Part shown: in pieces, positions 41,250 to 63,611 of the stretch
Position numbering within the stretch: position 1 is the stretch's first letter
Layout of the letters: every line of letters starts with the position of its first letter
Assembly: GCA_050010135.1 (NCBI GenBank)
Contig: JBEKLP010000001.1
Coordinates: 15,289 to 79,288, forward strand
Reading direction: 5' to 3'
DNA length: 64,000 nt
DNA from: Anaerolineales bacterium
GTDB taxonomy: Bacteria > Chloroflexota > Anaerolineae > Anaerolineales > RBG-16-64-43
Notes under the pieces: model-generated
What the model was told of the DNA's origin: nothing
Seen by the model: only the letters and a program-made list of their open reading frames with translations
Databases searched by the model: none
Position numbers and translations under genes: made by a program

Positions 41250-41472
41250 TTATCGATTCCTTCGCTTCATCTTGAAGGGCGTCCCTTCTCGATGGTAATA
41301 CCCAGATAAGGATGAACTTGATTTTTCTTTCCTTGTCGACGGACTGCTTCTTCAAATTTTGTTGCCTCTCTCGAAATAGGCTCCTTCGGGAATCTTATTG
41401 ACCTCCAAAATATCACCATCTCTCCACCTCGAACCATCGAATTTCCACGAATGGAGGGGAATAATTGTGAAA

Positions 41473-46106: not shown

Positions 46107-46121
46107 TTTCCGGGAGGAGCA

Positions 46122-46613: not shown

Positions 46614-46650
46614 TCTTTTTTCCGACAATTCTTAATTTCCAGGAGGAGCA

Positions 46651-47163: not shown

Positions 47164-47207
47164 GCCCAAATTCGGTTCATGGGATCAAGCCTGATATATT
47201 TTTGGGC
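47164..47207 (-). repeat. Possible internally deleted attC remnant (distal end of the array)
   Basis: GCCCAAA ... TTTGGGC perfect 7-nt inverted ends 30 nt apart. The ends resemble the GCCCAAC/GTTGGGC family, but the centre is missing. Confidence 0.3.
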
Positions 47208-47276
47208 CGTTCCAGGTATAGATACAGTCGCAGATATCTCCCGTCGGGTGTACTATTCATTCTAAAGTGAGGCCAT

Positions 47277-48497
47277 ATGGATACCATTTCTTTTATCGTC
47301 ACATTGCTTATTGCGATTGTTGTATTTCTTATTGTGGGATTTATATTAGGGTATCTGATTGCGCGTCTCCGGGAAAGATCCTCCGGCGAGCAATCGCGCA
47401 TTCAGGTGGCGCAATTGGAGGCCGAAGCGCGTGCCGCTAATGAGAAAGTAGCATATCTTCAGAATAGTAAACAGGAAATGGAGAATTCCTTTACCGCCCT
47501 AGCGAATGGTGTTTTGTCAAAAGCAACCGACGATTTGTTGAAGAATAATTCGACACAGTTGGAACTTGGCAAGAACGCCATCACCGCAATTGTCGATCCA
47601 TTAAAGGCTAATTTAACTGATCTCGACAAAAATATTCGTGATTTGGAAGGGAAGCGTGAAAGCGCCTATGGTTCGCTTACTACTCAAGTAACGGCATTAA
47701 CCAAAACGAACGATTCCCTCCAATTATCAACGCAAGCGCTCGCCAATGCCATGCGGTCCCCCACCATACGCGGCCGTTGGGGTGAGATTCAGTTGCGCCG
47801 GATCGTGGAGCTCGCCTCGATGAACCGAAACGTGGACTTCGAGGAACAAGTTACCGGGGATGAAGGGCGAGCGGATATGATCATTCATTTACCAAACGAA
47901 GGCATTCTTCCACTCGATTCGAAGGCCCCGCTGAATGCCTATCTGGAAGCTATGGAATGCCAGAGCCAGGATGATAGGGATGCGAAAATGGATTTGCATG
48001 CAAAGGCAATGAAGGCGCGCATCTCCGAACTTGGGCAAAAGAAATATTGGGAACAATTCAAGGAATCAAAAGCTCCTGATTTTGTTATTATGTTCGTGCC
48101 GAATGAAAGCTGTCTAGGAGAGGCGCTGGAAGCGGATGCCGGCTTGATGGAATACGCCATTTCCCAAAAAGTTATCATCGCGTCGCCTTTTACGCTTTTA
48201 GCCCTCTTGCGCACCGTTGCTTATGGATGGTCACAGACCCAAGTTGCGGAAAACGCACAAGAAATCGCAGAGCTTGGAAAAGAGCTGTACAAGCGTCTCG
48301 ATAAATTTGTGTCCCTTCTGGATGGGGTCGGTACCGGCCTTAATAGCGTAGTCAAACAATATAACGAGGTTATCGGATCCCTTGACCATCGTTCGATGCC
48401 TGCGTCGAGGAAAATGGAACAAGCGGGGCTATCGGAAAGTGAATTGGCGCTGCCCGAAGCCATTGACTTGAAGGCGAAAAGCGGACACGATTCATAA
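47277..48497 (+). CDS. rmuC: DNA recombination protein RmuC (N-terminal TM + coiled coil + RmuC nuclease-like domain)
   Basis: N-terminal hydrophobic helix and a long coiled coil. RGRWGEIQLRRIVE, DMIIHLPNEGILPLDSKAP and DFVIMFVPNES are collinear with the RmuC family. Confidence 0.85.
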   Translation: MDTISFIVTLLIAIVVFLIVGFILGYLIARLRERSSGEQSRIQVAQLEAEARAANEKVAYLQNSKQEMENSFTALANGVLSKATDDLLKNNSTQLELGKNAITAIVDPLKANLTDLDKNIRDLEGKRESAYGSLTTQVTALTKTNDSLQLSTQALANAMRSPTIRGRWGEIQLRRIVELASMNRNVDFEEQVTGDEGRADMIIHLPNEGILPLDSKAPLNAYLEAMECQSQDDRDAKMDLHAKAMKARISELGQKKYWEQFKESKAPDFVIMFVPNESCLGEALEADAGLMEYAISQKVIIASPFTLLALLRTVAYGWSQTQVAENAQEIAELGKELYKRLDKFVSLLDGVGTGLNSVVKQYNEVIGSLDHRSMPASRKMEQAGLSESELALPEAIDLKAKSGHDS

Positions 48498-48503
48498 TTA
48501 TTG

Positions 48504-48643
48504 ACCCAACTTACTAGCGTCTTGCGGTTCTGGCGCTTTACCGGCTGCGCAGGATTAGGTTAATTCTATATTATCCACCGCTGAAGAGCATACTAACGAA
48601 GAGTCTAGTCGAAGACCAAGTTAGCTACAAGCGCGGGTAGGGT
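48504..48643 (-). repeat. attC-like recombination site
   Basis: ACCCAAC...GGCGCTTTACCGGCTGCGCA......GACCAAG..GCGCGGGTAGGGT, the same family as the sites below. It lies 21 nt after the stop of the 48665 gene on the minus strand. Confidence 0.6.
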
Positions 48644-48664
48644 GTAGTAAAAGTCCATCCAATA

Positions 48665-49237
48665 TTATTTATATATATCCCCTGTAAACATAAAAATAAC
48701 CCTTTTCGTTTTCCGCGGAAATACATCGATTTCTTGATTCGAATCTTCTTTTCTTAACTTCACTTTTTCAATTATTCTTTCTTCGATATACCAATGAATA
48801 TCATTATTTTTTAGGCTGTCAATTATCGTAAAGCAATTTGCAAATGCCAAACTTGATGCCTGTAAGTAATTCATCCTTGGTATTTCTTCATTTACTTTCC
48901 AATCTACGGGAGGAGGAAACGCCTGACCTTTTACACAAACCACAAAACTACCTTTCGGCGAGTTAATTCTGTCAATAATCTTTTTAATCTTTCTCACTTC
49001 ATCTATTGCATGTTTATAAGTGTCTCTTTGTGAAACATCCACTTTTGCCAGTAATAATACTGAATCATTCCAAAAGCAAATTTCTTCGTGATATCTAATC
49101 CAGGTTTTACTTTTCATGATAGCGTCATGCATATTTCGAATAATTGTTACTCCAACACCTTTACTATTATTAAGTAATTCTCCTGTATCAATCATATCAA
49201 TGTATGAGATTATACAATCTGGTCCGATATTAGTCAT
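48665..49237 (-). CDS. Hypothetical protein with weak class III nucleotidyl-cyclase/GGDEF-fold-like motif order
   Basis: IISYIDMIDTGELL, CFWNDSVLLLA, a helix AIDEVRKIKKIIDRI, then GSFVVCVKGQAF follow the order of cyclase palm-domain elements. Similarity is judged by eye only. Start at the ATG (MTNIGPD). Confidence 0.35.
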   Translation of the reverse strand: MTNIGPDCIISYIDMIDTGELLNNSKGVGVTIIRNMHDAIMKSKTWIRYHEEICFWNDSVLLLAKVDVSQRDTYKHAIDEVRKIKKIIDRINSPKGSFVVCVKGQAFPPPVDWKVNEEIPRMNYLQASSLAFANCFTIIDSLKNNDIHWYIEERIIEKVKLRKEDSNQEIDVFPRKTKRVIFMFTGDIYK

Positions 49238-49267
49238 ATGATTTCCTGCTCTCAACAACTTCGAGAT

Positions 49268-49350
49268 GAGCCTCCTGGCCAGCCTAAGGCTAGCATCGCA
49301 CGAATGCCAAACACTCAGCTAGCCGGGTCAACTCCATCTAGTGATTTGGC
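49268..49350 (-). repeat. Decayed attC-like site (one end retained, the other lost)
   Basis: CCTGGCCAGCC...GTGATTTGGCGG aligns with the CTTGGCCGGCT...GCGTGTTGGGCGG parts of the family. The GCCCAAC end is absent. Confidence 0.4.
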
Positions 49351-49361
49351 GGAATTGCTGA

Positions 49362-52052
49362 TTATGAGCTGGCCAGTTGGTACTTAGTACTTCGCTTACG
49401 GAGGGCGGCTTCGCCCCCTTCGAGTTGCTTGAGGAAATATATCGACTGCTCGTCCTCGAAGCCGGCAGCATGCTCCACACGGCAGCGTGGTTCGCCAGGT
49501 ACTTTTGTAACCTTGATTATGAGCTCGGCGTCTCCAAGGACCGGAATGTTAGGGTTATGGGTGCAGACCAGGATTTGGCGCTTCCCCTTTGCTGACCGAA
49601 TACTTTCGACCACGCTGCTGCATATAAATTCGTGGTCGAGCTCGGCCTCGGGCTCGTCGATTATCAAAGGGTGATCGCCAGAGGAGAGCATTAAGGATAG
49701 GATGACACTGCACTTCTCACCTATGCTGAGTTGATCCAGGGAGGAGAAGTCCGCGTGTCCCTCGCGCTTAAGGGAAATAACGGGCTTGTCTTCGAGCAGA
49801 CTCTCCTCGATACGCTCAACTTCTTCTTCTGGGAGAGCGAGAAGTTTGGATGTGGCGTCGGGTGAGATGCCTGCGGCCGTGATCGCGTCTTCATTCTTAG
49901 AACGGATCAAGTTGGCAAGGGTCCGTGGAGGGAAGGAGGACACTAGAGTCTGGATGTGTCGCTCGCGGTTCCGGATGCCCAGCCCAGCCAAGACTACGGA
50001 GCTGAGAAATGTGAAGTACGCCGTGTCGTCGGCGAGGGGCATGATTCGAACATTGACGTTTTCTGGAAGCCTAGAATTAAGTAGATCGGCAGTGGTTTGA
50101 CGGACCTGGGTACGTTTGCCAAGGATTGTGCCAATTCTGTCGAGGGCGGAAGTTCTCTCTTGCGAGAGGGATAAGAGCTTCTCGTCAATACGCTTGAGTG
50201 CGGGTTCGTGTTGCCTTTGGATCTTGTTTAGCTGACCTTGGAGCTCGTTGCGTTCGGAGTGCACGTGTTCAATGTCGGAGAGCTTTAGCTTCCTTAGGTT
50301 GGCTTGGAGGCTGGCTTTTGCAGCGTCGTAGTCCTTCCTCCATTTATCGCGCGCTTGTCTGACAGCGCGCAACGCGACTTGGAGGGACGCTTGGTCCTTG
50401 TCCGTGGAGGCTCTAAGTTCGCGGAGAAGGAGCTTAAGGGCGGAGTGGGCGTCTTTGAGGGGAGAGGCTGCGGGGGTCTTGTCTGGCAGCTCAGGTAACT
50501 CGAGGTCTGCATACGGATCGCCCTCAGGGATAATCTCAGAAATTTCCTGAATCAATCTATCAGACTCATCAAGGTAGATCTTCTGGTCCTCCCAACGTTG
50601 ATGGTGTGCAAAGACAGGGTTCTGGAGGTGGGCGTCAATCTCCGAAATTCTCTGAGTAATGCTTGGTTTGGAGGCGAGCTCCTCGAGGACCGCACCCCTT
50701 TTTTCGGCCTGCTCGAGGCGAGCCTTGTTTGCGGCGTCAAGCCGTTCTCTCTGGATCTTGAGTTCTTTATGGATCTCGGTCAGGTCTGTAAATGAGTCGA
50801 TGAGCGTTAGCTGGTCGTCTCCCTTCTTGGAGATCTCCATCACTTCGCCCTGGCCGTAGATACCGACGGGGAGAAGGTCCCCGATTGTTTGGCTTTCTTT
50901 CATAGGGCCAGTGTCTCTCAGACGGAACAGATCGGGTGGCGAGGAAATCCTAATCTCATCCCGAACGCGCGTCGATGACATTACTCTTCGAACGCAGTAT
51001 TGAGCTCCTTGGAGGGATATATAAAGACGGACTTCGTCTCCGTCGGAGAGGAAACCCACTAACCGATGGTTCACGGCCTGCTGGTACGTAGCGGCAATTG
51101 CATCGTGACCAATGCAGAAGGAAAGGATGTCAATTAGCGCAGATTTACCGGCGCCTCGGCCACCAATAATGGCGTTGAGATCGGAGTTGAACGGGATGGC
51201 AGTGTCTTGGTATAGGCCGTGATCGATGACGATGCCAGTAAGTGTAGCGGAGGCGGAAGCGGCGAGGGAAGTGCCACTTGTTCGGAGGTGAGGCTCAAAG
51301 GAGAGTTGGCGAAGACCGGAAAAGGATGGGCGATGCATCTTGACAAGAGATACATCGGGAATAATCTCAGACTCTGAATGTGAGTCGGAGGAGTATACGA
51401 ATGGGAGTGCTGGATATCGGAGATCATTGATGACGTAACTGCAAGTCTTAATTGACTTGGCGCGGGATTGGTCGGCGCGGAGCTCTAATAACGACATCGC
51501 GTTAAGGGCGTTCTGCCTGGGGACACCGTCTAGGCCGTCAACGACCCCATTCTTCGAATTGCAGTGGGCCCCTACTAGAAGACCGCCTTCCTTATTAACT
51601 TCTGATGCTATATCTGCAATGGACTTGAAGACGCACGTCTTCTCCTTGCCGAAATCGTCTTGGTGGAGGCCAAGTCTTCCGAGAAGGAGCGATATGGACG
51701 CAGACGTGGAGTTCTCGGGGAGGATCGCAGAGATATGGATACCATTTGCGTTGAGTTCCACTCCCGGAAGGATGGTAAAAGGCGTCTGACTTCTTGCAGA
51801 ATATTTTTTTGCAGCTTCCTTCAGCTGGTCTACCCAGACTCCGGTACTATGGTCAGTGATGGCGACTAATGAGATGCCTTTTTTTGCATAGGCTGCAACG
51901 AAGTCATGCGGGGTAGTAGAGGTCAACCAACGCGAGTCCTCGGAGGCTGGTGAGTGAGTGTGGAGGTCCACTCTCCAGAAGGACGAGCCAGAGGACTCTT
52001 TACTTAGCTTTTGTATGTCTCTTTCGACGGTTTCTCTTGAGAGGTTCGACAT
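49362..52052 (-). CDS. PHP-domain phosphoesterase fused to an SMC/ABC-type ATPase with coiled-coil insert
   Basis: N-terminal WRVDLHTHSPASED...AITDHST (PHP). Walker A IIGGRGAGKSALI, a long coiled coil, signature-like LSIGEKCS and Walker B LIIDEPEAELD. Confidence 0.75.
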   Translation of the reverse strand: MSNLSRETVERDIQKLSKESSGSSFWRVDLHTHSPASEDSRWLTSTTPHDFVAAYAKKGISLVAITDHSTGVWVDQLKEAAKKYSARSQTPFTILPGVELNANGIHISAILPENSTSASISLLLGRLGLHQDDFGKEKTCVFKSIADIASEVNKEGGLLVGAHCNSKNGVVDGLDGVPRQNALNAMSLLELRADQSRAKSIKTCSYVINDLRYPALPFVYSSDSHSESEIIPDVSLVKMHRPSFSGLRQLSFEPHLRTSGTSLAASASATLTGIVIDHGLYQDTAIPFNSDLNAIIGGRGAGKSALIDILSFCIGHDAIAATYQQAVNHRLVGFLSDGDEVRLYISLQGAQYCVRRVMSSTRVRDEIRISSPPDLFRLRDTGPMKESQTIGDLLPVGIYGQGEVMEISKKGDDQLTLIDSFTDLTEIHKELKIQRERLDAANKARLEQAEKRGAVLEELASKPSITQRISEIDAHLQNPVFAHHQRWEDQKIYLDESDRLIQEISEIIPEGDPYADLELPELPDKTPAASPLKDAHSALKLLLRELRASTDKDQASLQVALRAVRQARDKWRKDYDAAKASLQANLRKLKLSDIEHVHSERNELQGQLNKIQRQHEPALKRIDEKLLSLSQERTSALDRIGTILGKRTQVRQTTADLLNSRLPENVNVRIMPLADDTAYFTFLSSVVLAGLGIRNRERHIQTLVSSFPPRTLANLIRSKNEDAITAAGISPDATSKLLALPEEEVERIEESLLEDKPVISLKREGHADFSSLDQLSIGEKCSVILSLMLSSGDHPLIIDEPEAELDHEFICSSVVESIRSAKGKRQILVCTHNPNIPVLGDAELIIKVTKVPGEPRCRVEHAAGFEDEQSIYFLKQLEGGEAALRKRSTKYQLASS

Positions 52053-52181
52053 AGTTCCACCTGAGACGATGAGCCGTGCTTGATCTCACTCCATAGTTTG
52101 GCGCATGACAGTACGGGAGTCAAGGAGCACGTCAGTTTGAGTGGTGGGGAGAAGTGAATGTAGCTCCTTTTGGCGCAATTC

Positions 52182-52310
52182 CGCTTATCGGAGGCGACTC
52201 AGATGCTTGGCTTGTTGTTTAACACTTTCATCATTTTACATGAAAGCTCATCACCTCAAATTTCGACTTTTTACGGCCGTAAACGAGGGCGTTTTCAGCC
52301 GCGTGTTGGA
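52182..52310 (-). repeat. attC-like recombination site (one end degenerate)
   Basis: Plus-strand right end is CAGCCGCGTGTTGGAC. The left part GGAGGCGACTCAGATGCTTGGC aligns with GGCTGGCGGCTCAAGCGCTTGGC, and the GCCCAAC position reads GCTTATC. Confidence 0.55.
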
Positions 52311-52332
52311 CGGAATAAATGGCTAATGGTAA

Positions 52333-53661
52333 TCAGTAGAATGGTACAGAAATTACTTGGTCGATTGTTTGACGCAATTTTGTGATTGAATAAAGAAGAT
52401 TCCTTGCATCGAGGGAAGAAGCGAGTTGTTGAAGTCCAGTCCGAATTATATTGTCTCCTCTATGTAAATCATCGCCGAATGATATAGCTTCATCAAAAGC
52501 CAACTGGACATTGTTATTAACTCGAGTTAATAGGTCGAGGTACTGAGGTAATTCTTCTAAAATAAATGGGCGATAACGATTGGATGGGTCGGAAAGGGCC
52601 AACATTTGATTCGCAAATGTTGTTGTAAGTCGAAAGTTATTTAGATCGGATCGGCTCAATAGTATTACTTGTGATTCTATCGTTGCCCATTTGCCAATCA
52701 CATGTGAGTTATAAATAAGTTCATTATCTAGAGAGTATGTATTGTAACGGAAAGTTAAGCGGCGTAAATAGGTTTCTATATAGCCAAGATTGTCATGATA
52801 TCCAAGCCATTTTCTTAATATATGAACGGAAATCATTCGAATGACCTCACTCTCGGCAAGGTCCGATCTTAGGGCGACAAACCACTTGACTCTTTGCGTA
52901 ATGGCATCGGGGACATCGGAATAACGAATGGCAAAAGAAGGGGCATCACGTTCGGTACTTCTGAACCGGTTTAATTCCTGAGTATTTATGTATGAACTAG
53001 TATGAGTGTATAGATTTCTGAGTGAGAATAAGTAGTCAGCAAGTAGAACATATCGATCTTCCACTCCAAGTTGATTCCACGGGAGCGTTTGAGGTGATAT
53101 CGTATCTCTGAAAGGCGCGTTTTTAGCTATAAAGTAAATTGAGCATAGCCATTCTCGCATCCAATGGTCAACACCTTCGCGAAGAATTCGCTTGAAGAGG
53201 CGAGAGACACCCTCTTCGTAATAATATGCAGTTTTTAGATTTGGTATTGTCGTGCGGAGGATATCAATAATGGAGACAGCATTTTTATTTTCTAGTGCAT
53301 CAATCATCGAGACAATGGATGGCTTAGTAATGGGGTCCTCAAGCGATGCAAACAACCAATCTGGGAAATCGCGGAACTCACGACATTGATATTCCTCCCT
53401 TGAAATAATATCCAACGAAGTAAGGGCTAGATATGTTATAAGACGATCAACTTGATATTCGCGGTTTAATTGTCCTCCGACAGCAGTGAAATGGGTAAAG
53501 CGGGAATTGTACTTTAGGAGTTCACCGAATTCTAATCTTTCGCATATTTCAATAGTAATTTCTAGGCGGCGCGGATTGAGGTCCTGAAGCCTTTCTAGGT
53601 TTCGGTTGAATTCAACTTCATCGCCCCCTTCTCGTAATACGCGGTGAATAGGGTCTGTCAA
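52333..53661 (-). CDS. Hypothetical alpha-helical protein with an RNxxxH (HEPN-type Rx4H) motif
   Basis: 442 aa. LFSLRNLYTHTSSY contains R-N-x-x-x-H, the canonical HEPN catalytic motif. No other recognisable domain. Confidence 0.4.
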   Translation of the reverse strand: MTDPIHRVLREGGDEVEFNRNLERLQDLNPRRLEITIEICERLEFGELLKYNSRFTHFTAVGGQLNREYQVDRLITYLALTSLDIISREEYQCREFRDFPDWLFASLEDPITKPSIVSMIDALENKNAVSIIDILRTTIPNLKTAYYYEEGVSRLFKRILREGVDHWMREWLCSIYFIAKNAPFRDTISPQTLPWNQLGVEDRYVLLADYLFSLRNLYTHTSSYINTQELNRFRSTERDAPSFAIRYSDVPDAITQRVKWFVALRSDLAESEVIRMISVHILRKWLGYHDNLGYIETYLRRLTFRYNTYSLDNELIYNSHVIGKWATIESQVILLSRSDLNNFRLTTTFANQMLALSDPSNRYRPFILEELPQYLDLLTRVNNNVQLAFDEAISFGDDLHRGDNIIRTGLQQLASSLDARNLLYSITKLRQTIDQVISVPFY

Positions 53662-53724
53662 TTCACAAATCTCCGGTAAATGGGATCTAGGTGGGGATGC
53701 AAAGATACTAGAATAATATTGTAT

Positions 53725-53914
53725 CCCCCGCCGGCTGGTGGCTCAACGTACCCCCGGTTCTACCGTGAGGGCCGGGGAGCTTGGCCGCACCCGCATTTCA
53801 ATCACCATTTTAACAGGAAATCGAAACCCAAATCAAACGTGTTCTCTCTGAACATTGGTCAAAGCCTGTCCTCGCGTGTTCTTAGCAAGTGTCGCCCGCA
53901 ATCGCGTGCTTGGC
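53725..53914 (-). repeat. Decayed attC-like site
   Basis: CCCCGCCGGCTGGTGGCTCAACG aligns with GCCCAACGGCTGGCGGCTCAAGCG. GTCGCCCGCAATCGCGTGCTTGGCC aligns with GTCGTCTGCAGCCGCGTGTTGGGC. Confidence 0.4.
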
Positions 53915-53920
53915 CATGGA

Positions 53921-54553
53921 TCATTTACGACGTCGTGTAGATCGGGAACCCTTCTTTACATCGAGATCTCGCAGGTCCTTTCGAATCGAGTATCTGTTAT
54001 TAACCGAAACCCAATGATCAAGCGAGTCTAAATCATATATATAGGAATGCTTGAGACTAAGGGAATCACGACAAGTTAAAGTGAGCCGTGCGATGACACG
54101 TTCATATCGGTCGTTAAGATTCGGTACTCCGCTTTCGGTGGCTAATTTAGAAGGGACGGTAATTGATTCTCTACCGATTCGGTCCCTAACCGTGAACATT
54201 GTTCCACCAGTTTTAAATATCATGGCGACTGTTTCCCCTGATTGAAGAGGAAGATTATATCGGAGAGATAACTGAGGAGGAACCCATGGTAAAGAATCAG
54301 AATAAGGAAAAAGTACTCCCCATATATCAGTAGCAACGCCACTACCAACATTTTTAATATCGAATTGCCTTTGTTGAGCATTTATAAGATCCTCTGTGTT
54401 GGGGATATTTGTTGGGATCAATATGGGGCGAACTAGAGCGCGTTGGGCATCTCGCGCTTGTCTTACGCTTAAATATGTAAAGAATGCGAGTACAAGTGTG
54501 GCAACTACTACACCAATCGCTGCAAGGTTAGCAATTCCTATTTCAGCAAACAT
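53921..54553 (-). CDS. Hypothetical protein with a single N-terminal TM anchor
   Basis: Start at MFAEIGIANLAAIGVVVATLVLAFF, preceded by GGAAGGGAAGGAG. The upstream part of the ORF-track ORF lies inside an attC-like repeat. Confidence 0.45.
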   Translation of the reverse strand: MFAEIGIANLAAIGVVVATLVLAFFTYLSVRQARDAQRALVRPILIPTNIPNTEDLINAQQRQFDIKNVGSGVATDIWGVLFPYSDSLPWVPPQLSLRYNLPLQSGETVAMIFKTGGTMFTVRDRIGRESITVPSKLATESGVPNLNDRYERVIARLTLTCRDSLSLKHSYIYDLDSLDHWVSVNNRYSIRKDLRDLDVKKGSRSTRRRK

Positions 54554-54574
54554 TGTCTCTCCTTCCCTTCCTAC

Positions 54575-54713
54575 CGCCAACGGCCTGCGGTTAAGCCGCC
54601 TGGCCGGTCGCGAGGAAAACACTGTGACTTAGAGGCATTTTACGCGATTCTTAAAAAGCCCGCAGCCTTGCCTCTTGGCCTTTGGCCATGTCGCCTGCAG
54701 CCGCGTGTTGGGC
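54575..54713 (-). repeat. attC-like recombination site
   Basis: CGCCAACGGCCTGCGG...CCTGGCCGG......GGCCATGTCGCCTGCAGCCGCGTGTTGGGC. Confidence 0.7.
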
Positions 54714-54787
54714 ACCCTGAAATATTATTAATTACGCCTAGCTCGAAAGCTTATTACTCTTCGGTGCGTTCACCGTGAGTAATTTTA

Positions 54788-55516
54788 CTACTCAACATTT
54801 TCTTTATGCGGTAAAAAAAGGGTGATGGCGACAACGAAACAAAGGACTTTGGATATTGCATTTAATGCAATCGGGATTGGGGCGGAGGGAAAAGTAAAAC
54901 CAAATGCGGCCCAGATAGCAAAAACCAGGAACATGGCAGACAGAGAGTAAAGAGTTGCTCTCGACAATTTCACCAACGGCGAGAAAGTCAGCAAAGAATA
55001 GGTCGAAATCTCTATCAGGAATAACGGCAGGAAATACAACCCCCTGAACGAGAGTGCGGGCAAAGGCGTATATACTTTCCCCACGATAATAAGATCAAAG
55101 GGAAGCTCGAATATCCATGGCGCGACCAGTGCACCGAGGACGGCGCTGCCCAGCGCTATTTTCCAGCCATGATGTCTACTTATAACCAGGATGACGATAA
55201 AGGTAACAAGAACGCCTATATACGTAATTGGCGTGATCGGGTTGGCTGCCCCTGTGATCTTCGGAACCTGCCCACTCGCAATCTGCTGGGCAAACGCGCG
55301 AATATAAACGCCAACCGCATTGAGGTACATCACCAGCGATAAGAACCATAAAACACACAGGAAAAAAGTGACCGCTTTTCCAGGCCTGGCAGCTCCGATC
55401 GCCCGATGCATCCTGGTTCCAACAATTGCGAGAGTAAATGCGATGATCCCCAGCACGATGGTCAGGATTACAGCGCCGCTTCCAGTATAAGCAGCCCAAC
55501 TACCACTTACGGTCAT
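54788..55516 (-). CDS. Polytopic integral membrane protein, unknown family
   Basis: 242 aa, hydrophobic almost throughout, with about seven predicted helices by eye. Confidence 0.55.
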   Translation of the reverse strand: MTVSGSWAAYTGSGAVILTIVLGIIAFTLAIVGTRMHRAIGAARPGKAVTFFLCVLWFLSLVMYLNAVGVYIRAFAQQIASGQVPKITGAANPITPITYIGVLVTFIVILVISRHHGWKIALGSAVLGALVAPWIFELPFDLIIVGKVYTPLPALSFRGLYFLPLFLIEISTYSLLTFSPLVKLSRATLYSLSAMFLVFAIWAAFGFTFPSAPIPIALNAISKVLCFVVAITLFLPHKENVE

Positions 55517-55579
55517 GATTGAGCTCCTTTCAGTGTTTATAAAATCATCGGTGGATCGAATATGTATTCATTTACTACC

Positions 55580-55711
55580 GCCCAACGGTAGCGCTCAGGT
55601 GCATGGCGATATTTTTTATTTGCTCGACATTTTATCCAAAACCGCGAAAAGCTGGGATTTGCCGGTTTTTTCGCCGCCCGTGGCCGCGTCAGCCGCAGCG
55701 CAGGGTTGGGC
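55580..55711 (-). repeat. attC-like recombination site
   Basis: GCCCAACGGTAGCGCTCAGG......CGTCAGCCGCAGCGCAGGGTTGGGC. Lies 13 nt after the stop of the DUF1254 gene. Confidence 0.7.
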
Positions 55712-55724
55712 CGTTTTTCAACTG

Positions 55725-56312
55725 CTATTGTCCGGGTGGCCCACCCCTTAGCGGTTTTAGTTGTATCTGCGATGTAAGAGCATGGGCAGTTGCCAGGTCG
55801 CTGTCGCTTTTCACAAGCACGCGCCCGGCCACGAACACCGAGTTGTTCGGCGAGGATATCTGCTTCATGCCGCCCGGTACCTGGCCTTTCCAATTCCGCC
55901 CCGTAATAAGATAGTCTCCCGCCTGCGGACCCGTGGTGCGCGTGCCGACGTATGCGAAATTGGTGTTTTTCGACGGATCTGTGAATTGCACGCTGTAGTA
56001 ACGATCGGTCATGTCGGGTACGTGCAAGACGAGCGGCCCTTTCCGGAGGTCCAACCAGCCGAGCGTAAGGAGCGTGTCGTGGTTCACGCCGGAAGTCGCC
56101 ACTTTTGGGGCCGAGGCGGGCAGGCTGAACGGGTCTGCAAAAAACGCCTGGGGTTCAGTGTATAGCGTATTGATCGGGACTGGGCCTTCGCCGAAGCCTT
56201 TCACGAGGATCGCTCTCTTGAAGACTGACAGCAGCAAGCTCGGCCAAAAGTAGATCACCACGCACCACACCACGATCACCACCACACCGAAGATCAGTAA
56301 ATTCTGGGTCAT
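55725..56312 (-). CDS. DUF1254 domain protein with N-terminal TM helix
   Basis: HDTLLTLGWLDLRKGPLVLHVPDMTDRYYSVQFTD...GTRTTGPQAGDYLITG matches the DUF1254 consensus. Start at MTQNLL, 5 nt after the upstream stop. Confidence 0.75.
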   Translation of the reverse strand: MTQNLLIFGVVVIVVWCVVIYFWPSLLLSVFKRAILVKGFGEGPVPINTLYTEPQAFFADPFSLPASAPKVATSGVNHDTLLTLGWLDLRKGPLVLHVPDMTDRYYSVQFTDPSKNTNFAYVGTRTTGPQAGDYLITGRNWKGQVPGGMKQISSPNNSVFVAGRVLVKSDSDLATAHALTSQIQLKPLRGGPPGQ

Positions 56313-56317
56313 AGCCG

Positions 56318-56980
56318 TCAGCTCGCTTCGACCACCGGCGGGACGATGTACTCGCCCTTGAGGATGGCCTCGCCGGGAATGTAGACGCGCAGCCAGAGGA
56401 TGAAATTGCCCGCAGGCGCGGGCAGCCAGTTGGGCTCGTGCCCCGCCGGAGCCGCCTTTTGAATGTAAACATCGATCGAACCATCGGGGTTTTGGGCCAA
56501 GTCGGTGCGATCGCTGACGTTGTACCGGTTGAGCGGATTCGCCACAAAGTGATTCCCCGCATCCCCCATCGTAATCGACCAGAATGCCTTGTTCGGCGGG
56601 AGTCCTCCCGGCGGGAAGTGCAGGATGTAGTCGTGCGCCCCGGAGAGCGTGTGGCCGGCGCCGTCTGAATTCGTCCACCAGTACATCGCCTCTCGCGGAG
56701 TATTTACCGGGCCGGGGAAAAGCTGGGCGTGCGCGGCGCGCAAGAACATGCCGTTGCCGGGTTCGCCCAACCCGTACATGGTGATCCAGCCGTTGATCTT
56801 TTTGGCCTTGATCCGGGCGTAAACCTGGGCCGAGACGAACGCCAGCCCGAAGCCGATCAGGGCGCCCTGAATGATGGCATTCCGCAAGATCATGTTTTGG
56901 GGGAAGAGGACGGTGCGGACGAGGAAGTAGACGCATACCGCGCCGATGAGGATTGCTAGGTATGTGTATGTTCTGCTCAT
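56318..56980 (-). CDS. DUF1214 domain protein with N-terminal TM helices
   Basis: NGW..., AFWSITMGD..., NPLNRYNVSDRTDL...DGSIDVYIQ...EPNWLPAPAGNFILWLRVYIPG matches the DUF1214 consensus. Confidence 0.75.
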   Translation of the reverse strand: MSRTYTYLAILIGAVCVYFLVRTVLFPQNMILRNAIIQGALIGFGLAFVSAQVYARIKAKKINGWITMYGLGEPGNGMFLRAAHAQLFPGPVNTPREAMYWWTNSDGAGHTLSGAHDYILHFPPGGLPPNKAFWSITMGDAGNHFVANPLNRYNVSDRTDLAQNPDGSIDVYIQKAAPAGHEPNWLPAPAGNFILWLRVYIPGEAILKGEYIVPPVVEAS

Positions 56981-57046
56981 ATAATTATTCTATCACCTCT
57001 GATTCAGCAGCTTTCTCCCGCTTGTGAACTCCCATCAATTTTCAAG

Positions 57047-57178
57047 GCCCAACGGCTGGCGGCTCAAGCGCTTGGCCGGCTGTGCAACACCAGGTTCACT
57101 TTACTCGGAATTTCAACGAAGCAAGTTGTGTTACCTCTCGCAGCTATAGGCCAAGTCGTCTGCAGCCGCGTGTTGGGC
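57047..57178 (-). repeat. attC-like recombination site (best-preserved copy)
   Basis: GCCCAAC-GGCTGGCGGCTCAAGCG-CTTGGCC-...-GGCCAAG-TCGTCT-GCAGCC-GCGT-GTTGGGC. The ends match RYYYAAC / GTTRRRY, and the inner CTTGGCC/GGCCAAG and GGCTG/CAGCC segments pair. Confidence 0.75.
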
Positions 57179-57194
57179 GGCGTAATTCTCTTAA

Positions 57195-58571
57195 TTAATC
57201 TGAAGTTTCCTTTTTGATGATTATATGCAATTCTCCATTTGATCTTCTTGGCAAATTGGCTGCAAGAAGTTCATATGTAATATTAAATGACTTTGCAGTT
57301 TCATAGGATTCAAAAATAACATATAACGGATCAAAAGGTTCAATTAATTGATGCTTAATACGGTTTACATGAATATTTACATCATAGCTTCCAGTACGCT
57401 TTATTTTAGGAAATGAAATATTTGGCGGAGAAGATATTGGTCCCATTACGGGATTTATATTGGATGGTAAATAAGGAACATTTCCAAGAACACTTAATCC
57501 ACCCATTAGATGTTCCATTTGTGATTTAGGTTTTTCTGGCGGCTGAGGTGGTTTAGGTGCCTTCGGAAGATCTTCTTTGTGGAATAATTGAAAACCATCA
57601 GGAAAATGAATAAAGACATCTATATCTTCTGCGGGTGCTGTTCCATCATTTGAAAGCAATATTGATAATTTAATTGCTCTTCGTTTAATATTCTCAAAAT
57701 TTGTTTCAAGAGTTAAATATTGAGGATAATTAGTATAATACTCGTCAAGATCATTATTGTACTTTTCGTAATCTTCGGGAGAAAGTCCAATAAGCATTGA
57801 ATCGCGTAATTTGGTGGCCAAATTAACCAATTCTTGACTTTTTTTGTCAGACATTTCTGGTATTTCTAATTTATATGGCTTTATTTCCATATGAGGATAT
57901 TTCTCTTTTACTTTAGCAATTCGATTTTCAATATTTTCTTCCGTTAAAACAACTGGAGAAGGAAGAGTAAATGTTGCATATTGGTTTTCATCTTCAAATA
58001 CTAATGATAATTGCGGGTTTTTTAGTTTTAATTGCCTAAGCTCCTCTTCTAGATCCCTCATTTTTGCGACTTCGGGATCAGGTTCTTCTGGGAGACGTAA
58101 GTTTTCATCAATATTAATAGTTGAAATATTATGAGAATTAGCTTTTGCCCATAGAGAAAGCCCAGAATCAGAAGTAAATAAAACAATATCCGCCTCTGGA
58201 TTCTCATTGTGATAGGTAAGTATACTTGCAATTAGGTGATCATCTTGAATATCACGGCTTAGTTGAAAAGAACCAAAATCTATAAGGGGATCGCGTGGTT
58301 CTAAGACTAATTCGATTAATGGATTTATTTGCGCATGAAGGTTTTGATCAATTATTCCCGAGATCTTTCGGAGTATCAAACCCGCACGTTTTCGAATCCT
58401 TTGTCTTTGATTACCATCTTTATGTTTATTAAGTTCGCGAATTGTTATTGGCGGGATTAATATAATTACCGAATCGGCATGTGAAATAGCAGGCCAATCA
58501 ATTTGGTCAAAATCATAGTAGTGAATAAATATATTTGTGTCAACGAATAATATCTTTTTCATATTCATCAT
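57195..58571 (-). CDS. PIN-domain protein with a large uncharacterised C-terminal region
   Basis: KILFVDTNIFIHYY (first acidic residue), ITIRELNKH, DDHLIASIL and VLFTSDSGL give the PIN acidic-residue spacing. The remaining ~300 aa are not recognised. Confidence 0.65.
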   Translation of the reverse strand: MMNMKKILFVDTNIFIHYYDFDQIDWPAISHADSVIILIPPITIRELNKHKDGNQRQRIRKRAGLILRKISGIIDQNLHAQINPLIELVLEPRDPLIDFGSFQLSRDIQDDHLIASILTYHNENPEADIVLFTSDSGLSLWAKANSHNISTINIDENLRLPEEPDPEVAKMRDLEEELRQLKLKNPQLSLVFEDENQYATFTLPSPVVLTEENIENRIAKVKEKYPHMEIKPYKLEIPEMSDKKSQELVNLATKLRDSMLIGLSPEDYEKYNNDLDEYYTNYPQYLTLETNFENIKRRAIKLSILLSNDGTAPAEDIDVFIHFPDGFQLFHKEDLPKAPKPPQPPEKPKSQMEHLMGGLSVLGNVPYLPSNINPVMGPISSPPNISFPKIKRTGSYDVNIHVNRIKHQLIEPFDPLYVIFESYETAKSFNITYELLAANLPRRSNGELHIIIKKETSD

Positions 58572-58618
58572 ATTATAAATTAATTACATGTTTTGACAAG
58601 TAAGCATAAATTATTAAG

Positions 58619-58742
58619 CCGCCCAACGGCTGTTGGCTCAGGCGCTTGGTCGGCTATGCAACATATGGTTCATTTTATCCGAAACTTCATCGAAGCAATA
58701 TTTGACATTTCTCACATTCAAAAGCTAAACCGCATGGAGCTG
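58619..58742 (-). repeat. attC-like recombination site (one end degenerate)
   Basis: GCCCAACGGCTGTTGGCTCAGGCGCTTGGTCGGCTATGCAAC is near-identical to the 57047 copy over its first ~80 nt. The other end reads GATCGGGC instead of GTTGGGC. Confidence 0.6.
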
Positions 58743-58767
58743 TGGATCGGGCGCGGATAATTCTGAT

Positions 58768-60294
58768 TCATATGGCCTCCATCATCTCGTTCAAACTTCG
58801 GAGTGCATCAAAGAATTCAATGGTTAGCATAACCAAGCGACATTTTAACTTATGTAATGTAATCTTCTTATTATAGAGCGATGACACTTCTTGCGAAGTA
58901 TATTGAACAGGTAGGTTTTTGAGATTATTTATTCGTCGCCTGATTTCTCGTGAATGGCCAATTAGGGAAAATATATCAGCACTCGATCCAGTACCTGTGT
59001 ATGTAGATGAAAGCTTATTAAGGAACTCTTTTTCCGAAGGCAGGGCCGAAGGTGATAACTCGGCTGGAGGCAGTGCTCTTAAGAGGTCGCGTAGCGATAT
59101 CTTGTTGCGTTCCAACAATGCCATTATTTGATCATATGTCAGATCCGACATAAAGGAAGTATTTATTGATGTGTTTTCGAAGAATCCTATCGTTTGTGAG
59201 AAATCCGACCGGCTATCAATTAGGGTGGCTAACGCTTCTGTTGGATCAATCTCATAGATTTTTAACGGATGCTCTTCAATTAACGGGTCTATTGACCGAA
59301 ACTCATCGAGAAGTGCGGATGGGGATGAAATAAGCGAGAGTGGCGAGAAGAAGAATACATCGTATCTACTTGAGAGACCAAGAACTGGCAAATTTGCAAT
59401 CGAAGAATAGTTAAGAATGAAGTGAGGACATTGTGTTATATAGGATTGTATCGCCTTAGGAAGATTTTTATCACTTACAACCACGAAGAGTTTTCGATAC
59501 AATTTACGATCACTGATGAACCGCTTAAGGTAGCCTAAGTTAAACCTACCTGAGTTGGCGATTGAAGAAAGTGAGGCTTTAAAAGTTCTTATCTGGCCTT
59601 CTTTGTAATTGAGCTTCTTTGCAACCTCTTCCACGTAATCATCTTTGAGGAAACGATCATAGAAGTGGAAGCGCGCGTGCTCAAATAAAGTATCATCAAG
59701 CGGTGAGAAGTAAGTCTCGACAACTGAGTATTTCCGATCCAAGATTGCTATCTGATTATATGCGAGAACAAACTCGGTCTTACCCTTGTCAGTAAGTCCC
59801 CGGTAAATGGATTTGATGTATAAGAAAGAAGCATCTTGATCTTGTGGATGGAGATGTTCGCGATACCAAATAAGGAATAAAGCTATAACCATGGGACGAC
59901 GGCGTTTATCATCAATATCTGATGCACCCAATGACCGGGCAGGTATCTGTGCGCAGACAAGTTCCAGTTGAGAAAAGAGTGGAAGTGATTGTCGTGCTTG
60001 TGATTCAGGAAGTGATAAAAGAAAATAATCGAGTAGGAAAGTGCGAAATTTGATTACAGAGGATTTTACGGATCGCTGGTAATCCGAGGGGCCAACGTAT
60101 TTTTGAAGGCGCGAAAGGATTTCTGGAGCAAAATCGTTTATAAGTCCCACGAATGGGATGAGTAGTGAAAAGTAGGCTAGAGGTGTAACATTCTGTTTTG
60201 AGGTGATAAACAGATTGAGGAAAAACAAGCCAATTAGAAAAAACAATGAAATACTTAATCGTATTATTGGGCGTAAACGGAAAAATGTTGTCAT
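58768..60294 (-). CDS. Hypothetical protein with two N-terminal TM helices
   Basis: 508 aa. N-terminus LSISLFFLIGLFFLNLFI / YFSLLIPFVGLI. The rest is soluble with no recognised motif. Confidence 0.5.
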   Translation of the reverse strand: MTTFFRLRPIIRLSISLFFLIGLFFLNLFITSKQNVTPLAYFSLLIPFVGLINDFAPEILSRLQKYVGPSDYQRSVKSSVIKFRTFLLDYFLLSLPESQARQSLPLFSQLELVCAQIPARSLGASDIDDKRRRPMVIALFLIWYREHLHPQDQDASFLYIKSIYRGLTDKGKTEFVLAYNQIAILDRKYSVVETYFSPLDDTLFEHARFHFYDRFLKDDYVEEVAKKLNYKEGQIRTFKASLSSIANSGRFNLGYLKRFISDRKLYRKLFVVVSDKNLPKAIQSYITQCPHFILNYSSIANLPVLGLSSRYDVFFFSPLSLISSPSALLDEFRSIDPLIEEHPLKIYEIDPTEALATLIDSRSDFSQTIGFFENTSINTSFMSDLTYDQIMALLERNKISLRDLLRALPPAELSPSALPSEKEFLNKLSSTYTGTGSSADIFSLIGHSREIRRRINNLKNLPVQYTSQEVSSLYNKKITLHKLKCRLVMLTIEFFDALRSLNEMMEAI

Positions 60295-60504
60295 TTTTGG
60301 CTCCTTTTACGGAGGTATGGTTTCCTCAGCTGCACAAAATGGTCTATAGGATCGATTGCATCTACGGGAGGTGTTGCGAAGGGTTTGAGAATTCCTCCGT
60401 GCGGTCTTGTCATCCATCGTAAGGGAATCGCCTAATGAGGCTCCGGTTTCTATCTAAACTAGGTATAGCCCTGAATTATTTTTGGTTTATTTTTAGCTGT
60501 GTCG

Positions 60505-63474
60505 TCAGGTCCTCGTGTGTTTGACTGTGGTCTCTTCCACAATCGCAATCTCTTCTGGCGTCAGTTCATATAACTCATACACCAGCGCGTCAATCTGCTG
60601 GTCGGTGGAATCTATCACCCGCTGCAATCGCTCTTGTTCAGTTGCGTCTATTGCTTCGGCTTGGCGTTTATGAAGATCAAGCATTTGATCAACCAGAGCT
60701 ACCATCTTGTCGTTTAGAGATTTGTCCGTAACGTTAGAATTATTAATTGATCGGATGGGCAATTGAACGACATATTGAGTTAAATACTCAAAATAACCAC
60801 CTCGCCGTTGTACAGCAAGACTGGCGAAGTAGTAGAACATCATTTTAGAATTTAATAATCCTAGCAAATACTTATCATCGGAAGGAATAAAATAGCAGGT
60901 CTTATCAACAAAAGTTCCTTCTTCATCGAGGACAAATGTGCCACGTTGGGCAACGCTTGCATAGATAATCTTAGGTTTGCGCAATAGATCATAGTAACTA
61001 CATGGCCGCAATTCATACCATTTCTTTGATGTATTCTTTATGTCTGTCCGAGCTTCCAGCTTAGCTCTATGATCTCTGAGATAGGACATTACATTAGGAT
61101 GACTGGTGTCGGTTATGCCATCTGTGAACAGCAAATATTCTCCTGTATGTTCATAACCGTAACGCTTCACATTTCGACCACGGAGGTAAGGTAGAAAAAT
61201 ACCACGTTCACTTTTCCGCTTTTTCGTAATAACGTCAATTTGAGTATCAGTAACAATAAACACCTCATTGAGACCTGTTTTCACACCAAATAGAGGTTCG
61301 CATCCACAGTATTCCGGTAAGAGTTGTCCAGCCATAGCGATCTTTTCTAATATATTTTTTTCGTTGGTAGGTTGGAGATGCCAGACTCCTTCCATAAGAG
61401 TGGATTGGGGAACGGTAAAGTGATTATCATTCACATAATCACTCAAATCTCGGAAGCTCAGGCTCTTTACATTACTAATAACAACTTGATTGTCTTCTTT
61501 TAATTTTGTTGTAGATTCCTTCTCTATCACTAAGATGCAAGGATAGACAGTTGCGCCTAAAAATACCGGCAAGTCACCAAAGTCTATAAACTGATGGATT
61601 ATGCCTTGTTGAGATAAATAACTTCGAAGTTTATTCCCGTAACCTGCTCGCACAAATTTATTTGAGACAATATACGAGAAAAAGCCATGCTCTCGGGTTA
61701 TACGCAAAGAACATTCTATAAAGTAAGCGAACAGATCAGCGATGCTATCGTAAACTTGGTAATGTGTCTCAAAATAGTCTTTAAACCCAGCAATTGTTTC
61801 TTGCCGCACATATGGTGGGTTTCCAATTACGCAATCAAACCCTCCCTCCTTTATTGCCGCGGGAAATCCCTGTTGCCAATCGAATGGGTTCACGCGCCTT
61901 AGTTCGTCGTCATCCGGCATCATCTGGCCGGCGAAGTAATCCGGCCCGATCAGGCTGTTGCCGCATTTGATGTTGCTATCAAGGTTCGGTAAGGCACGCT
62001 CATTAAAGAGAGTAAGTTGTTTCAGTCCTTCCAACACTTTGAGCAGCAGCGAAAGTTTGGTGACTTCGACCGCCTGCCGGTCAATATCCACTCCGTAGAT
62101 GTGCTCGGTGAGTATGCGTTTGCGTTCCGGCAAGGTAAGCTGCCAGCTTCCATCCGGTTGCTGCGCCACGGCCTCCTTGTGCTTCCCTGGCTCGTGTGCA
62201 ATGTACCAATCGTGGTAATACTCCAATAAAAGCGTATACGCCCCCAACAGAAACGAGCCGGAGCCACATGCCGGATCGAGAACGCGGAAACCATTGAGCT
62301 GCGCGGGACTCTTGCCTTCGATCTGCTTGCCAACCGTGTTTTTGACGATATATTCCACGATATAGGAGGGCGTGTAATAGACTCCCCCCGCCTTTTTTAC
62401 TTCCGGTTTTTCTTCAACTTTAGCATGATGTGTTGGAGTGAACTTAATAACTTTGCCCAGGAACTGCTCGTATATGTTACCAAGGATCTCGACGGGCAAG
62501 TATCTAAATTCATACGGCTGGGGATAGTATAGGTCGGCCAGGATCGACTTAAGAGGCTTGTCGTCCACTGCAAGCCGAGAGGTAACCTGGTCGCCCGATT
62601 TGGTAAAGTCGAACAAACCAGAGTTGTATTTGGCATCCGCCTTTTTGGAAAGCGCGAGAAGTTTGGAGTAGATATCCTCGCCTTCACCAATTCGCTGGAG
62701 CTGGCCGTACTCTTCCATGCCGCGGTCCTCGACCATGCGAAGAAAAATAATACGGTCGATGGTGCGTTGCACGGAGTCGTTCAACTCGTCTAGCGAAATG
62801 TCGGGGTTGCGCAAGGCGATGTTGTGCGCCAGTGAATTGCGCCATCCTTCGATTTCCTTCAGAAATTCGGCGTCAACTTCCGACGTGCCGCGTTTGGCTT
62901 TGCTGCCCTGTGCAAACTGATCGAAGGATCCGCCCCACACCGCATCGCGCGAATAAATATCCCAGATTTCATGCCATCGATCGGCATACTCCTCATAGGT
63001 CAGATAGGCCAACCGCGCTACGGAGGATTTATCCTTTTCGGAAGGCCGGATGCGGCAATCGTACGCGGCCCACTCTTGAAAGTCCGTCAGCACCGAAAGC
63101 GGCAGCTTGGCGCTCCAGGCGTAGCGCCGCAATTGGTAGGCCGGCCCGGTCGACGTCTTCAGATCCACCCCCGGCCGCTTCGCCTCCGCAAAAAACTTCG
63201 GGTCGTGCCCCACGCGGAACACGTAATCCGGCGCTTTCCGTGCTTCGTGAGCCTCCATCTCCAGTGAATATTCCACGACAACATCGCGATAATCGGGCGC
63301 TGCCTGCTGCTGATTGTGCACGTCCCAGTTTAGGGCGATGAACAGAGGGTCGATGAATTCCTGGCGTGCCTGGGCTTCATTGTAGGCTGTAGCCAGGTAA
63401 GCAGCCCGGTTGGTCTCGAAGTGCTTTACGAGGCGGGCGATTTCATCCTTGGATTGATCAAAAGTATAGGCCAT
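60505..63474 (-). CDS. Type IIG restriction-modification enzyme (PD-(D/E)xK nuclease + N6-adenine methyltransferase + TaqI-like specificity domain)
   Basis: N-terminal NEAQARQEFIDPLFIALNWDV...DYVF...EAK nuclease region, LDPACGSGSFL (SAM motif I), VIGNPPY (motif IV), and a long C-terminal target-recognition region. Confidence 0.85.
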   Translation of the reverse strand: MAYTFDQSKDEIARLVKHFETNRAAYLATAYNEAQARQEFIDPLFIALNWDVHNQQQAAPDYRDVVVEYSLEMEAHEARKAPDYVFRVGHDPKFFAEAKRPGVDLKTSTGPAYQLRRYAWSAKLPLSVLTDFQEWAAYDCRIRPSEKDKSSVARLAYLTYEEYADRWHEIWDIYSRDAVWGGSFDQFAQGSKAKRGTSEVDAEFLKEIEGWRNSLAHNIALRNPDISLDELNDSVQRTIDRIIFLRMVEDRGMEEYGQLQRIGEGEDIYSKLLALSKKADAKYNSGLFDFTKSGDQVTSRLAVDDKPLKSILADLYYPQPYEFRYLPVEILGNIYEQFLGKVIKFTPTHHAKVEEKPEVKKAGGVYYTPSYIVEYIVKNTVGKQIEGKSPAQLNGFRVLDPACGSGSFLLGAYTLLLEYYHDWYIAHEPGKHKEAVAQQPDGSWQLTLPERKRILTEHIYGVDIDRQAVEVTKLSLLLKVLEGLKQLTLFNERALPNLDSNIKCGNSLIGPDYFAGQMMPDDDELRRVNPFDWQQGFPAAIKEGGFDCVIGNPPYVRQETIAGFKDYFETHYQVYDSIADLFAYFIECSLRITREHGFFSYIVSNKFVRAGYGNKLRSYLSQQGIIHQFIDFGDLPVFLGATVYPCILVIEKESTTKLKEDNQVVISNVKSLSFRDLSDYVNDNHFTVPQSTLMEGVWHLQPTNEKNILEKIAMAGQLLPEYCGCEPLFGVKTGLNEVFIVTDTQIDVITKKRKSERGIFLPYLRGRNVKRYGYEHTGEYLLFTDGITDTSHPNVMSYLRDHRAKLEARTDIKNTSKKWYELRPCSYYDLLRKPKIIYASVAQRGTFVLDEEGTFVDKTCYFIPSDDKYLLGLLNSKMMFYYFASLAVQRRGGYFEYLTQYVVQLPIRSINNSNVTDKSLNDKMVALVDQMLDLHKRQAEAIDATEQERLQRVIDSTDQQIDALVYELYELTPEEIAIVEETTVKHTRT

Positions 63475-63571
63475 GGCTGAATACAGGAGATTATATGCTT
63501 ACTATAGGAAATCGACAAATTTATTGGATTTGCATAATTAATCAGGAAATCGTCAACTTTTTTTCGCATGA

Positions 63572-63611
63572 TCCAAACGGCTCGCGGTTTTTGAACCTTT
63601 GCGTGTTATAC
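63572..63611 (-). repeat. Possible internally deleted attC remnant upstream of the R-M gene
   Basis: TCCAAACGGCTCGCGG...GCGTGTTATAC matches both ends of the family (CCCAACGGCTGGCGG / GCGTGTTGGGC), but only 40 bp remain. Confidence 0.3.

Follow-up and report, generated by a model that had tools for sequence, protein, structure and literature searches.

Between the minus-strand genes in the right-hand part of a 64,000-nucleotide (nt) stretch of the Anaerolineales bacterium contig JBEKLP010000001.1 (GenBank assembly GCA_050010135.1, positions 15,289 to 79,288; hereafter the window), a repeat of about 130–140 nt recurs, and the locus raises the question of whether these repeats are attC sites, the recombination sites carried by integron gene cassettes, and, if so, which integrase has served them. 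The reading adopted here, to which we assign a probability of about 0.88, is that the region from 48.5 to 63.5 kb is an integron gene-cassette array without its own integrase, that is, a group of clustered attC sites with no integron integrases (CALIN). An earlier note, made from the sequence of the window alone, had proposed attC sites, a cassette array and, as no integrase was in view, a CALIN; this proposal is upheld by the linkage of the same repeat family to integron integrases in other genomes, by the fixed polarity of the repeats after open reading frames (ORFs), and by compensatory base changes in their stems, which together identify the repeats as attC. Individual sites are named below by their first coordinate in the window, and comparison sequences are designated by L numbers.

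Repeat family and attC anatomy

The copies in the window were first spotted by a direct-repeat search and alignments. The six best copies, in their gene-strand (minus-strand) reading, served to build a covariance model, R1, which was run over the whole window with filters off, and a sequence hidden Markov model made from 26 family members was run over the window with nhmmer. R1 identified six clear copies in one orientation (103–137 bits), in agreement with the repeat family described earlier between the minus-strand genes, except that the limits of the fifth copy were corrected from 58619–58742 to 58621–58752. Together with one decayed site, these six strong ones fall inside a span of 10.3 kb (48.5–58.8 kb) of the 74 kb examined, which include about 10 kb to the right of the window, up to 73.5 kb, taken from the identical ENA contig L001. 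Apart from the six copies, no R1 match in the window exceeded 14.4 bits and none in the 10 kb beyond it exceeded 11.3 bits; by R1 and nhmmer, the repeats stand between minus-strand genes, and family members are absent from the other 57 kb examined. Two of three copies formerly described as decayed were recovered, one by R1 (52182–52310, placed at 52183–52311) and one by nhmmer (53725–53914, E 1e-5), but the third (49268–49350; 11.4 bits, E 0.59) was not found by nhmmer, and two supposed remnants of 40–44 nt (47164–47207 and 63572–63611) fell below every listed background match (less than about 6.3 bits, R1) and were missed by nhmmer. A strict regular expression for RYYYAAC...GTTRRRY was rejected as too rigid a search pattern, since it returned two copies and chance pairs only; Rfam and transfer RNA scans gave no matches.

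The distances between genes and repeats that had been noted earlier were confirmed from the coordinates: the gaps from gene stop to element are 16, 15, 13, 74, 6, 21, 11 and 21 nt. Three elements are followed by the next start codon, at 66, 63 and 63 nt. Pairwise identity among the window copies is moderate (57–71%), lower than the high similarity formerly attributed to them.

On the gene strand, the 5′ half of the intact copies consists of GCCCAAC, two unpaired nucleotides, GCGGCT, a bulged G, CAGGCG, AC and TTGGCC; a terminal structure of about 70 nt occupies the centre, and the 3′ half consists of GGCCAA, G, CGCCTG, AGCCGC, five unpaired nucleotides and GTTGGGC. The predicted GCCCAAC...GTTGGGC ends therefore hold in the intact copies: they match the inverse core RYYYAAC and the core GTTRRRY of attC exactly in sites 57047 and 55580, the only two in which neither the AAC nor the GTT triplet is lost, and one of the two core ends is intact in sites 58621, 54575, 52183 and 48504. 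The centres had been described as variable, but they contain a conserved TAAAATG block. In the consensus fold, 91.7% of cells over the 26 family members, drawn from several genomes, are paired, a count made on an alignment that was fitted to the model and so favours structure; both partners change in 12 of the 22 pairs, the observed values are not reached in any of 500 shuffles, and pairing falls to 20–47% in a control in which the partners were slid. Covariation was found in GCGGCT/AGCCGC (changed to GTGGCT/AGCCAC or GCCGCT/AGCGGC), in CAGGCG/CGCCTG (changed to CAGCCG/CGGCTG) and in TTGGCC/GGCCAA. This last pairing had been pointed out earlier together with GGCTG/CAGCC, which was rejected because site 55580 does not conserve it.

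A long covarying hairpin on the coding strand, 6–21 nt past the stop codons, could also be primarily an RNA structure of the 3′ untranslated region, acting as a terminator or as a stabiliser of mRNA. This explanation is very improbable: no T-run follows the hairpin, a terminator scan does not flag the repeats, Rfam has no match to them, and both the integrase linkage described below and the RYYYAAC/GTTRRRY ends would be left unexplained. Termination as a side-effect of attC hairpins is possible.

In some members of the family, one or two nested GC-rich hairpins extend the attC to 180–230 nt (53725–53914 in the window, L120:136–361, L078:4362–4543, L078:5197–5395 and L248), and the sequence of the hairpin insert is common to different genomes; the long site of the window resembles the long variant L120:136–361, which has the same nested insert.

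Integrase linkage elsewhere and assignment to the CALIN class

A pattern scan of species-representative genomes, the matches of which were then scored with R1, gave mostly chance matches in GC-rich genomes and about ten real loci. A relative in the contig L080, from a metagenome-assembled genome (MAG) of Chloroflexia, was confirmed by R1; an Anaerolineae MAG (L078 and L114) holds at least 10 copies on one strand, each directly after an ORF, and the family is also found in the Anaerolineae contigs L105, L043 and L096. The placement is co-oriented and just after ORFs in L078/L114, L080, L105, L043 and L096, so that the search of related genomes recommended in the earlier note did reveal the family after ORFs in other Chloroflexota contigs. 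Weaker matches were found in Myxococcota (L088, L026 and L006). A near-consensus family attC is present at L009:145–282, on a contig binned as Bacteroidota, by cross-phylum transfer or through a binning error. Metagenomes were sampled as 120 stretches among the matches listed for a conserved 19-mer on the R′ side. Among these listed matches, the family is present in 83 of the 120 stretches (198 matches), none of the 53 multi-match stretches mixes strands, and a co-oriented ORF stop precedes 74 of the 98 sites with enough flank, at a median distance of 12.5 nt, while an opposed stop follows 19.

An IntI1 sequence, which served as a probe only, was compared with all six-frame ORFs and matched L080:7120–7998 and L088:2336–3403, with no match in the window. 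With NCBIfam TIGR02249 (cut-off 265 bits) as the criterion for an integron integrase, L080 scored 389.9, L088 444.7, L199 477.6, L200 454.2, L227 347.3 and L223 297.7 bits, and the family stands beside such an integrase in at least four contigs (L080, L199, L200 and L227). In L080, L199 and L200, the integrase is divergent from the array (six family attC sites in L199), and an attI-like GTTGGGC is located next to the first cassette; in L080, the ATG of that cassette comes 15 nt after an ACCCAAC...GTTGGGC site. The first attC of L080, next to the integrase, and window site 57047 share 89% identity. The arrangement at L227:818–3298 is of another kind, the integrase being co-oriented with, rather than divergent from, family attC that flank it on both sides. 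At L078:1–632, a possible attI (GTTGGGC at 554–560, with AGATGC repeats before it) lies upstream of the first cassette; a minus-strand gene begins at position 48 and continues past the end of the locus.

These data bear on an alternative in which the repeats would be a miniature transposable element or a repetitive extragenic palindromic (REP)-like intergenic repeat unrelated to integron recombination. Terminal inverted repeats, a length of about 130 nt, an intergenic location and the small hairpins nested in some copies would all suit such an element. The single orientation after ORF stops, the absence from the other 57 kb examined, the lack of mixed strands among the listed metagenome stretches, the repeated adjacency to integron integrases and the fit of the ends to the attC core motifs do not, and this explanation is the least probable of those considered.

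The integrase itself was sought in the window and in the sequence up to 73.5 kb with the IntI1 probe, gene calls and tblastn, and neither an intI gene nor an intI pseudogene was found; in tblastn searches with the L080 and L088 integrases, every match in the window or the next 10 kb had an E value of about 1 or higher. No tyrosine recombinase was detectable in the window. The span lacking IntI thus reaches 25 kb to the left of the array and 10 kb to the right, and the earlier suggestion that an integrase lies just beyond 64 kb is not sustained, the genes called there being those for a chromate transporter, a methyltransferase, LplA, HycI and a NiFe hydrogenase. Upstream of the array, nothing significantly similar to the attI regions of L078 or L080 was found; a candidate attI remnant upstream of the restriction-modification (R-M) gene at the proximal end was rejected, because the 11-mer that it has in common with L078 is at chance level (E 0.43). 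A complete integron, with intI within a few kb, attI and the promoter Pc, was therefore not found in the window or as far as position 73474, and what is present, at least two clustered attC with no intI within the clustering distance, corresponds to the class defined as CALIN (PMC4889954). An integron array with no intI gene or pseudogene nearby is a CALIN by that published definition. The setting had been considered unusual, which it is not, since the host is an Anaerolineales MAG and integrons in Chloroflexi are already on record (PMC4889954).

Several features weigh against this assignment. In classical attC sites, the unpaired spacer is roughly 5/6 nt and the extrahelical base is usually G or T, whereas the spacer here is 2 nt on one side and 5 nt on the other, and the single bulged base, placed on the ″ arm between the two L-side helices, would be a C on the bottom strand. 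The R″ or R′ box is damaged in six of the eight sites. Single-sequence folding energies are ordinary (z –1.8 to +0.5), a measure that is uninformative here. Neither R1 nor the intergenic sequence reveals an attC between the R-M gene and the gene for the 508-amino-acid (aa) protein, and the R-M gene may consequently belong to the backbone rather than be a cassette.

We infer the recombination mechanism from established integron biology. The bottom strand of attC (the plus strand of the window) would fold into a hairpin, an integron integrase would cut the R box and join it to attI or to another attC, and cassettes, each composed of an ORF and its attC, would be inserted and excised singly; such single-cassette events would account for the alternation of genes and repeats, their single orientation and the mixed GC content of the array. 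The array would accordingly have been built by an integrase of the type linked to this family and would now depend on one supplied in trans. Because only sites 57047 and 55580 keep both triplets, most of the array looks frozen.

Compared with known systems, the array is like other CALINs (PMC4889954) in having at least two attC, a co-oriented arrangement, no intI or pseudogene within 10 kb and cassettes mostly of unknown function, but it differs in that its attC are long (129–190 nt) and mostly damaged and in that it stands next to a large-serine-recombinase island, the variants of which differ in their cassettes. Sedentary chromosomal arrays, such as that of the Vibrio cholerae repeats (bioRxiv 10.1101/2024.07.02.601686), likewise have family-type attC, cassettes of mixed GC, defence genes and promoter-like sites inside cassettes, whereas the window array has about eight cassettes, no integrase and a copy identity below the high values of large arrays. 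The Chloroflexota integrons L080, L199 and L200 have the same attC family and the same polarity of ORF followed by attC, and differ in possessing the TIGR02249 integrase and the attI-like GTTGGGC. Insertion at attG sites, described for lone attC sites with no integron integrase (SALIN) and small CALINs (bioRxiv 10.1101/2022.09.11.507474), could explain cassettes joined to a non-integron backbone at the stop codon of the RmuC-family gene that adjoins the array; however, no attG-type junction can be defined, and the homology break lies about 24 nt from the R′ crossover point.

Cassette genes and defence cargo

The array holds about eight gene cassettes (Table 1), and their heterogeneous composition, noted earlier, is confirmed (GC 0.32–0.61, compared with 0.60 in the host). 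The earlier note had read the cargo as defence-like; judged by sequence matches, two products are recognised defence proteins, the type IIG R-M enzyme and the PHP-ATPase, which is TrlF/Ppl-like and related to the anti-phage protein Ppl, and no other recognised defence product was found. The labels "HEPN-motif protein" and "membrane protein" were not reproduced by Pfam, NCBIfam or PADLOC, and five cassette products (197, 210, 242, 442 and 508 aa) matched nothing in these searches.

Table 1. Coordinates of the attC sites, cassette genes and island landmarks in the window.
Feature	Coordinates	Strand	Remarks
Type IIG restriction-modification enzyme	60505..63474	-	Pfam Eco57I/TaqI_C/N6_Mtase; PADLOC REase_MTase_IIG 720 bits; proximal-end gene
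508-aa protein	58768..60294	-	cassette; no family match
attC	58621..58752	-	after 508-aa gene; R″ degenerate GCCCGAT, R′ intact GTTGGGC; R1 123 bits, nhmmer E 4.5e-25
PIN_4-domain protein, 458 aa	57195..58571	-	cassette; Pfam; GC 0.33
attC, intact	57047..57178	-	after PIN gene; R″ GCCCAAC, R′ GTTGGGC; R1 137 bits
DUF1214 + DUF1254, two-gene cassette	55725..56980	-	GC 0.58–0.61; between the two intact attC
attC, intact	55580..55711	-	after DUF1214/DUF1254 pair; L stem shortened on both sides (GCGCT/AGCGC); R1 103.8 bits
242-aa protein	54788..55516	-	cassette; no family match
attC	54575..54713	-	after 242-aa gene; R″ intact, R′ GTTGGCG (one base lost); R1 104.2 bits
210-aa protein	53921..54553	-	cassette; no family match
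attC, long, decayed	53725..53914	-	nested GC-rich hairpin insert; R′ GGCGGGG, GTT lost; nhmmer 53776–53861, E 1e-5
442-aa protein	52333..53661	-	cassette; no family match
attC	52183..52311	-	after 442-aa gene; R″ GTCCAAC, R′ decayed GATAAGC; R1 106.5 bits
PHP + SMC-like ATPase, TrlF family	49362..52052	-	NCBIfam NF045780 388 bits (cut-off 350); PADLOC Ppl 162 bits; Pfam
Possible half-remnant attC, not significant	49268..49350	-	R1 11.4 bits (49248–49353), E 0.59; nhmmer none
197-aa protein	48665..49258	-	cassette; GC 0.32; no family match
attC, last	48504..48643	-	R″ ACCCTAC; R′ GTTGGGT displaced by small insertion; R1 102.6 bits
RmuC-family gene	47277..48497	+	last island backbone gene; Pfam RmuC 298 bits
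Large serine recombinase	38822..40546	-	Pfam Resolvase + Recombinase + Zn_ribbon_recom; left end of low-GC block
Island left junction	38890..38905	.	inside 5′ end of mevalonate-diphosphate-decarboxylase (MVD)-like gene; blastn break at 38897

The DUF1214/DUF1254 cassette, because it sits between two intact sites, is the best candidate for a cassette that is still mobile; from the state of the boxes, it is probably the one most likely to be still excisable, and the rest of the array is probably fixed. The same gene pair recurs directly after an attC in the metagenome contig L248, with 63–64% identity. Strong sigma-70-like promoter matches were found on the minus strand just upstream of the PIN gene (TTGTCA-16-TATAAT, 58572–58599) and just upstream of the type IIG R-M gene (TTGTCG-17-TATAAT, 63490–63518), and these two genes may need no integron Pc promoter to be expressed.

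The adjoining serine-recombinase island

The last attC of the array (48504–48643) is located 6 nt from the stop codon of the RmuC-family gene (48495–48497), which is the last backbone gene of an island headed by a large serine recombinase. At its left end, this island replaces the first 10–12 codons or so of the MVD-like gene with a new N-terminus, and the recombinase ORF extends about 75 nt into host-derived sequence. The insertion site is empty in the close relatives L120–L122 (M50 protease 95% identical), and a related island occupies the same site in L123–L126, with a recombinase (74% identical), helix-turn-helix (HTH) genes, two Xre-like genes and RmuC (92% identical). The sister islands cease to be homologous at the RmuC stop codon, past which L123–L126 carry a Mrr-type nuclease and a DUF6119 gene together with a 40-nt attC that has an internal deletion; a third variant (L127–L130) carries TIR, an attC scoring 52.8 bits, Shedu SduA, a second attC, this one decayed, an SMC-like ATPase and a type IIG fragment. 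The linkage of backbone and array is thus kept in three island variants, and RmuC homologues at 59% identity (L131–L133) show no attC linkage. Since sister strains have the same backbone with other defence cassettes (Shedu, TIR and Mrr), the array behaves as the variable defence module of this serine-recombinase island family, a role that is probable, not proven.

Further observations concern the island and its relatives. The 40-nt site in L123 (386–425, GCCCAACCCGCGCCTGAGCCGCCAGCCGTTAGGC) lies between two cassettes and scores 33 bits with R1. A tandem duplication at 46096–46924 (75% identical over 300 nt) comprises two copies of a gene for a 163-aa Xre-like HTH protein (46122–46613 and 46651–47142), both of which are kept in L123. 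A 1295-aa P-loop/STAND-like protein with C-terminal HEAT repeats is encoded at 41398–45285; the equivalent in L123 is a different, 528-aa HEAT protein, and the island therefore has a second variable module.

On the right-hand side, no junction of the island was found: the displaced MVD 5′ end (ATGACCACCACTATGGCCATCGCACACCCC) and glutaminyl-tRNA synthetase (GlnRS) were not detected up to 73.5 kb. The right flank is also non-syntenic with relatives, the nearest of which, L254, differs in gene order after the YgaP-like gene. The array may accordingly lie inside a serine-recombinase element or be merely fused to it. A 225-aa protein encoded at 72.2–72.9 kb is a widely conserved Anaerolineales protein. 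Between 64000 and 67400 (L001:6085–10000, compared with L254:5900–10800), the chromate transporter and methyltransferase genes are absent in L254 and a 200-aa gene is inverted, and L254 contains an attC R′-side remnant at 7923–7942 (E 0.0065); the comparison suggests that the right flank is a second recombination-prone spot. In L120:1–1600, which has no island, a family attC is followed by RibD_C and DpnII/MboI genes, about 7 kb from the empty site.

Two further readings of the array and its setting are tentative. Conceivably, the array forms an integral part of a family of serine-recombinase islands directed at the 5′ end of the MVD-like gene in Anaerolineales and can be exchanged as a module; its cassettes, mostly defence genes, would then travel between genomes by means of the serine recombinase, and resident chromosomal integron integrases would reshuffle them in trans. 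To our knowledge, such a division of labour between two recombinases has not been described for integrons. It is a comparably speculative alternative that the array is a piece of a chromosomal integron split off by rearrangement at the island and still serviced by an integrase encoded elsewhere in the same genome. The rearranged right flank, the family attC 7 kb from the same site in the island-less L120, the remnant in L254 and the varying cassette content of the sister islands would fit this alternative, as would the finding that about half of CALINs occur in genomes encoding IntI (PMC4889954); the absence of intI over the flanking 25 and 10 kb and the damage to most attC, which is contrary to ongoing turnover, speak against it.

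The CALIN reading of the array itself draws on elements that are all known: CALINs, integrons in Chloroflexi and defence cassettes, integron arrays having been published as stores of anti-phage systems (bioRxiv 10.1101/2024.07.02.601686 and 10.1101/2024.07.02.601719). What could add value is the link that the array seems to have with a family of serine-recombinase islands; if this link is real, it would point to a way for entire cassette arrays to move with no integron integrase involved. The locus adds a documented attC family and a cassette pool for Chloroflexota, a phylum in which integrons have barely been studied, and another instance in which defence genes are kept as cassettes, and the unannotated cassette proteins of 197, 210, 242, 442 and 508 aa, together with the PIN protein, are candidates for new defence functions.

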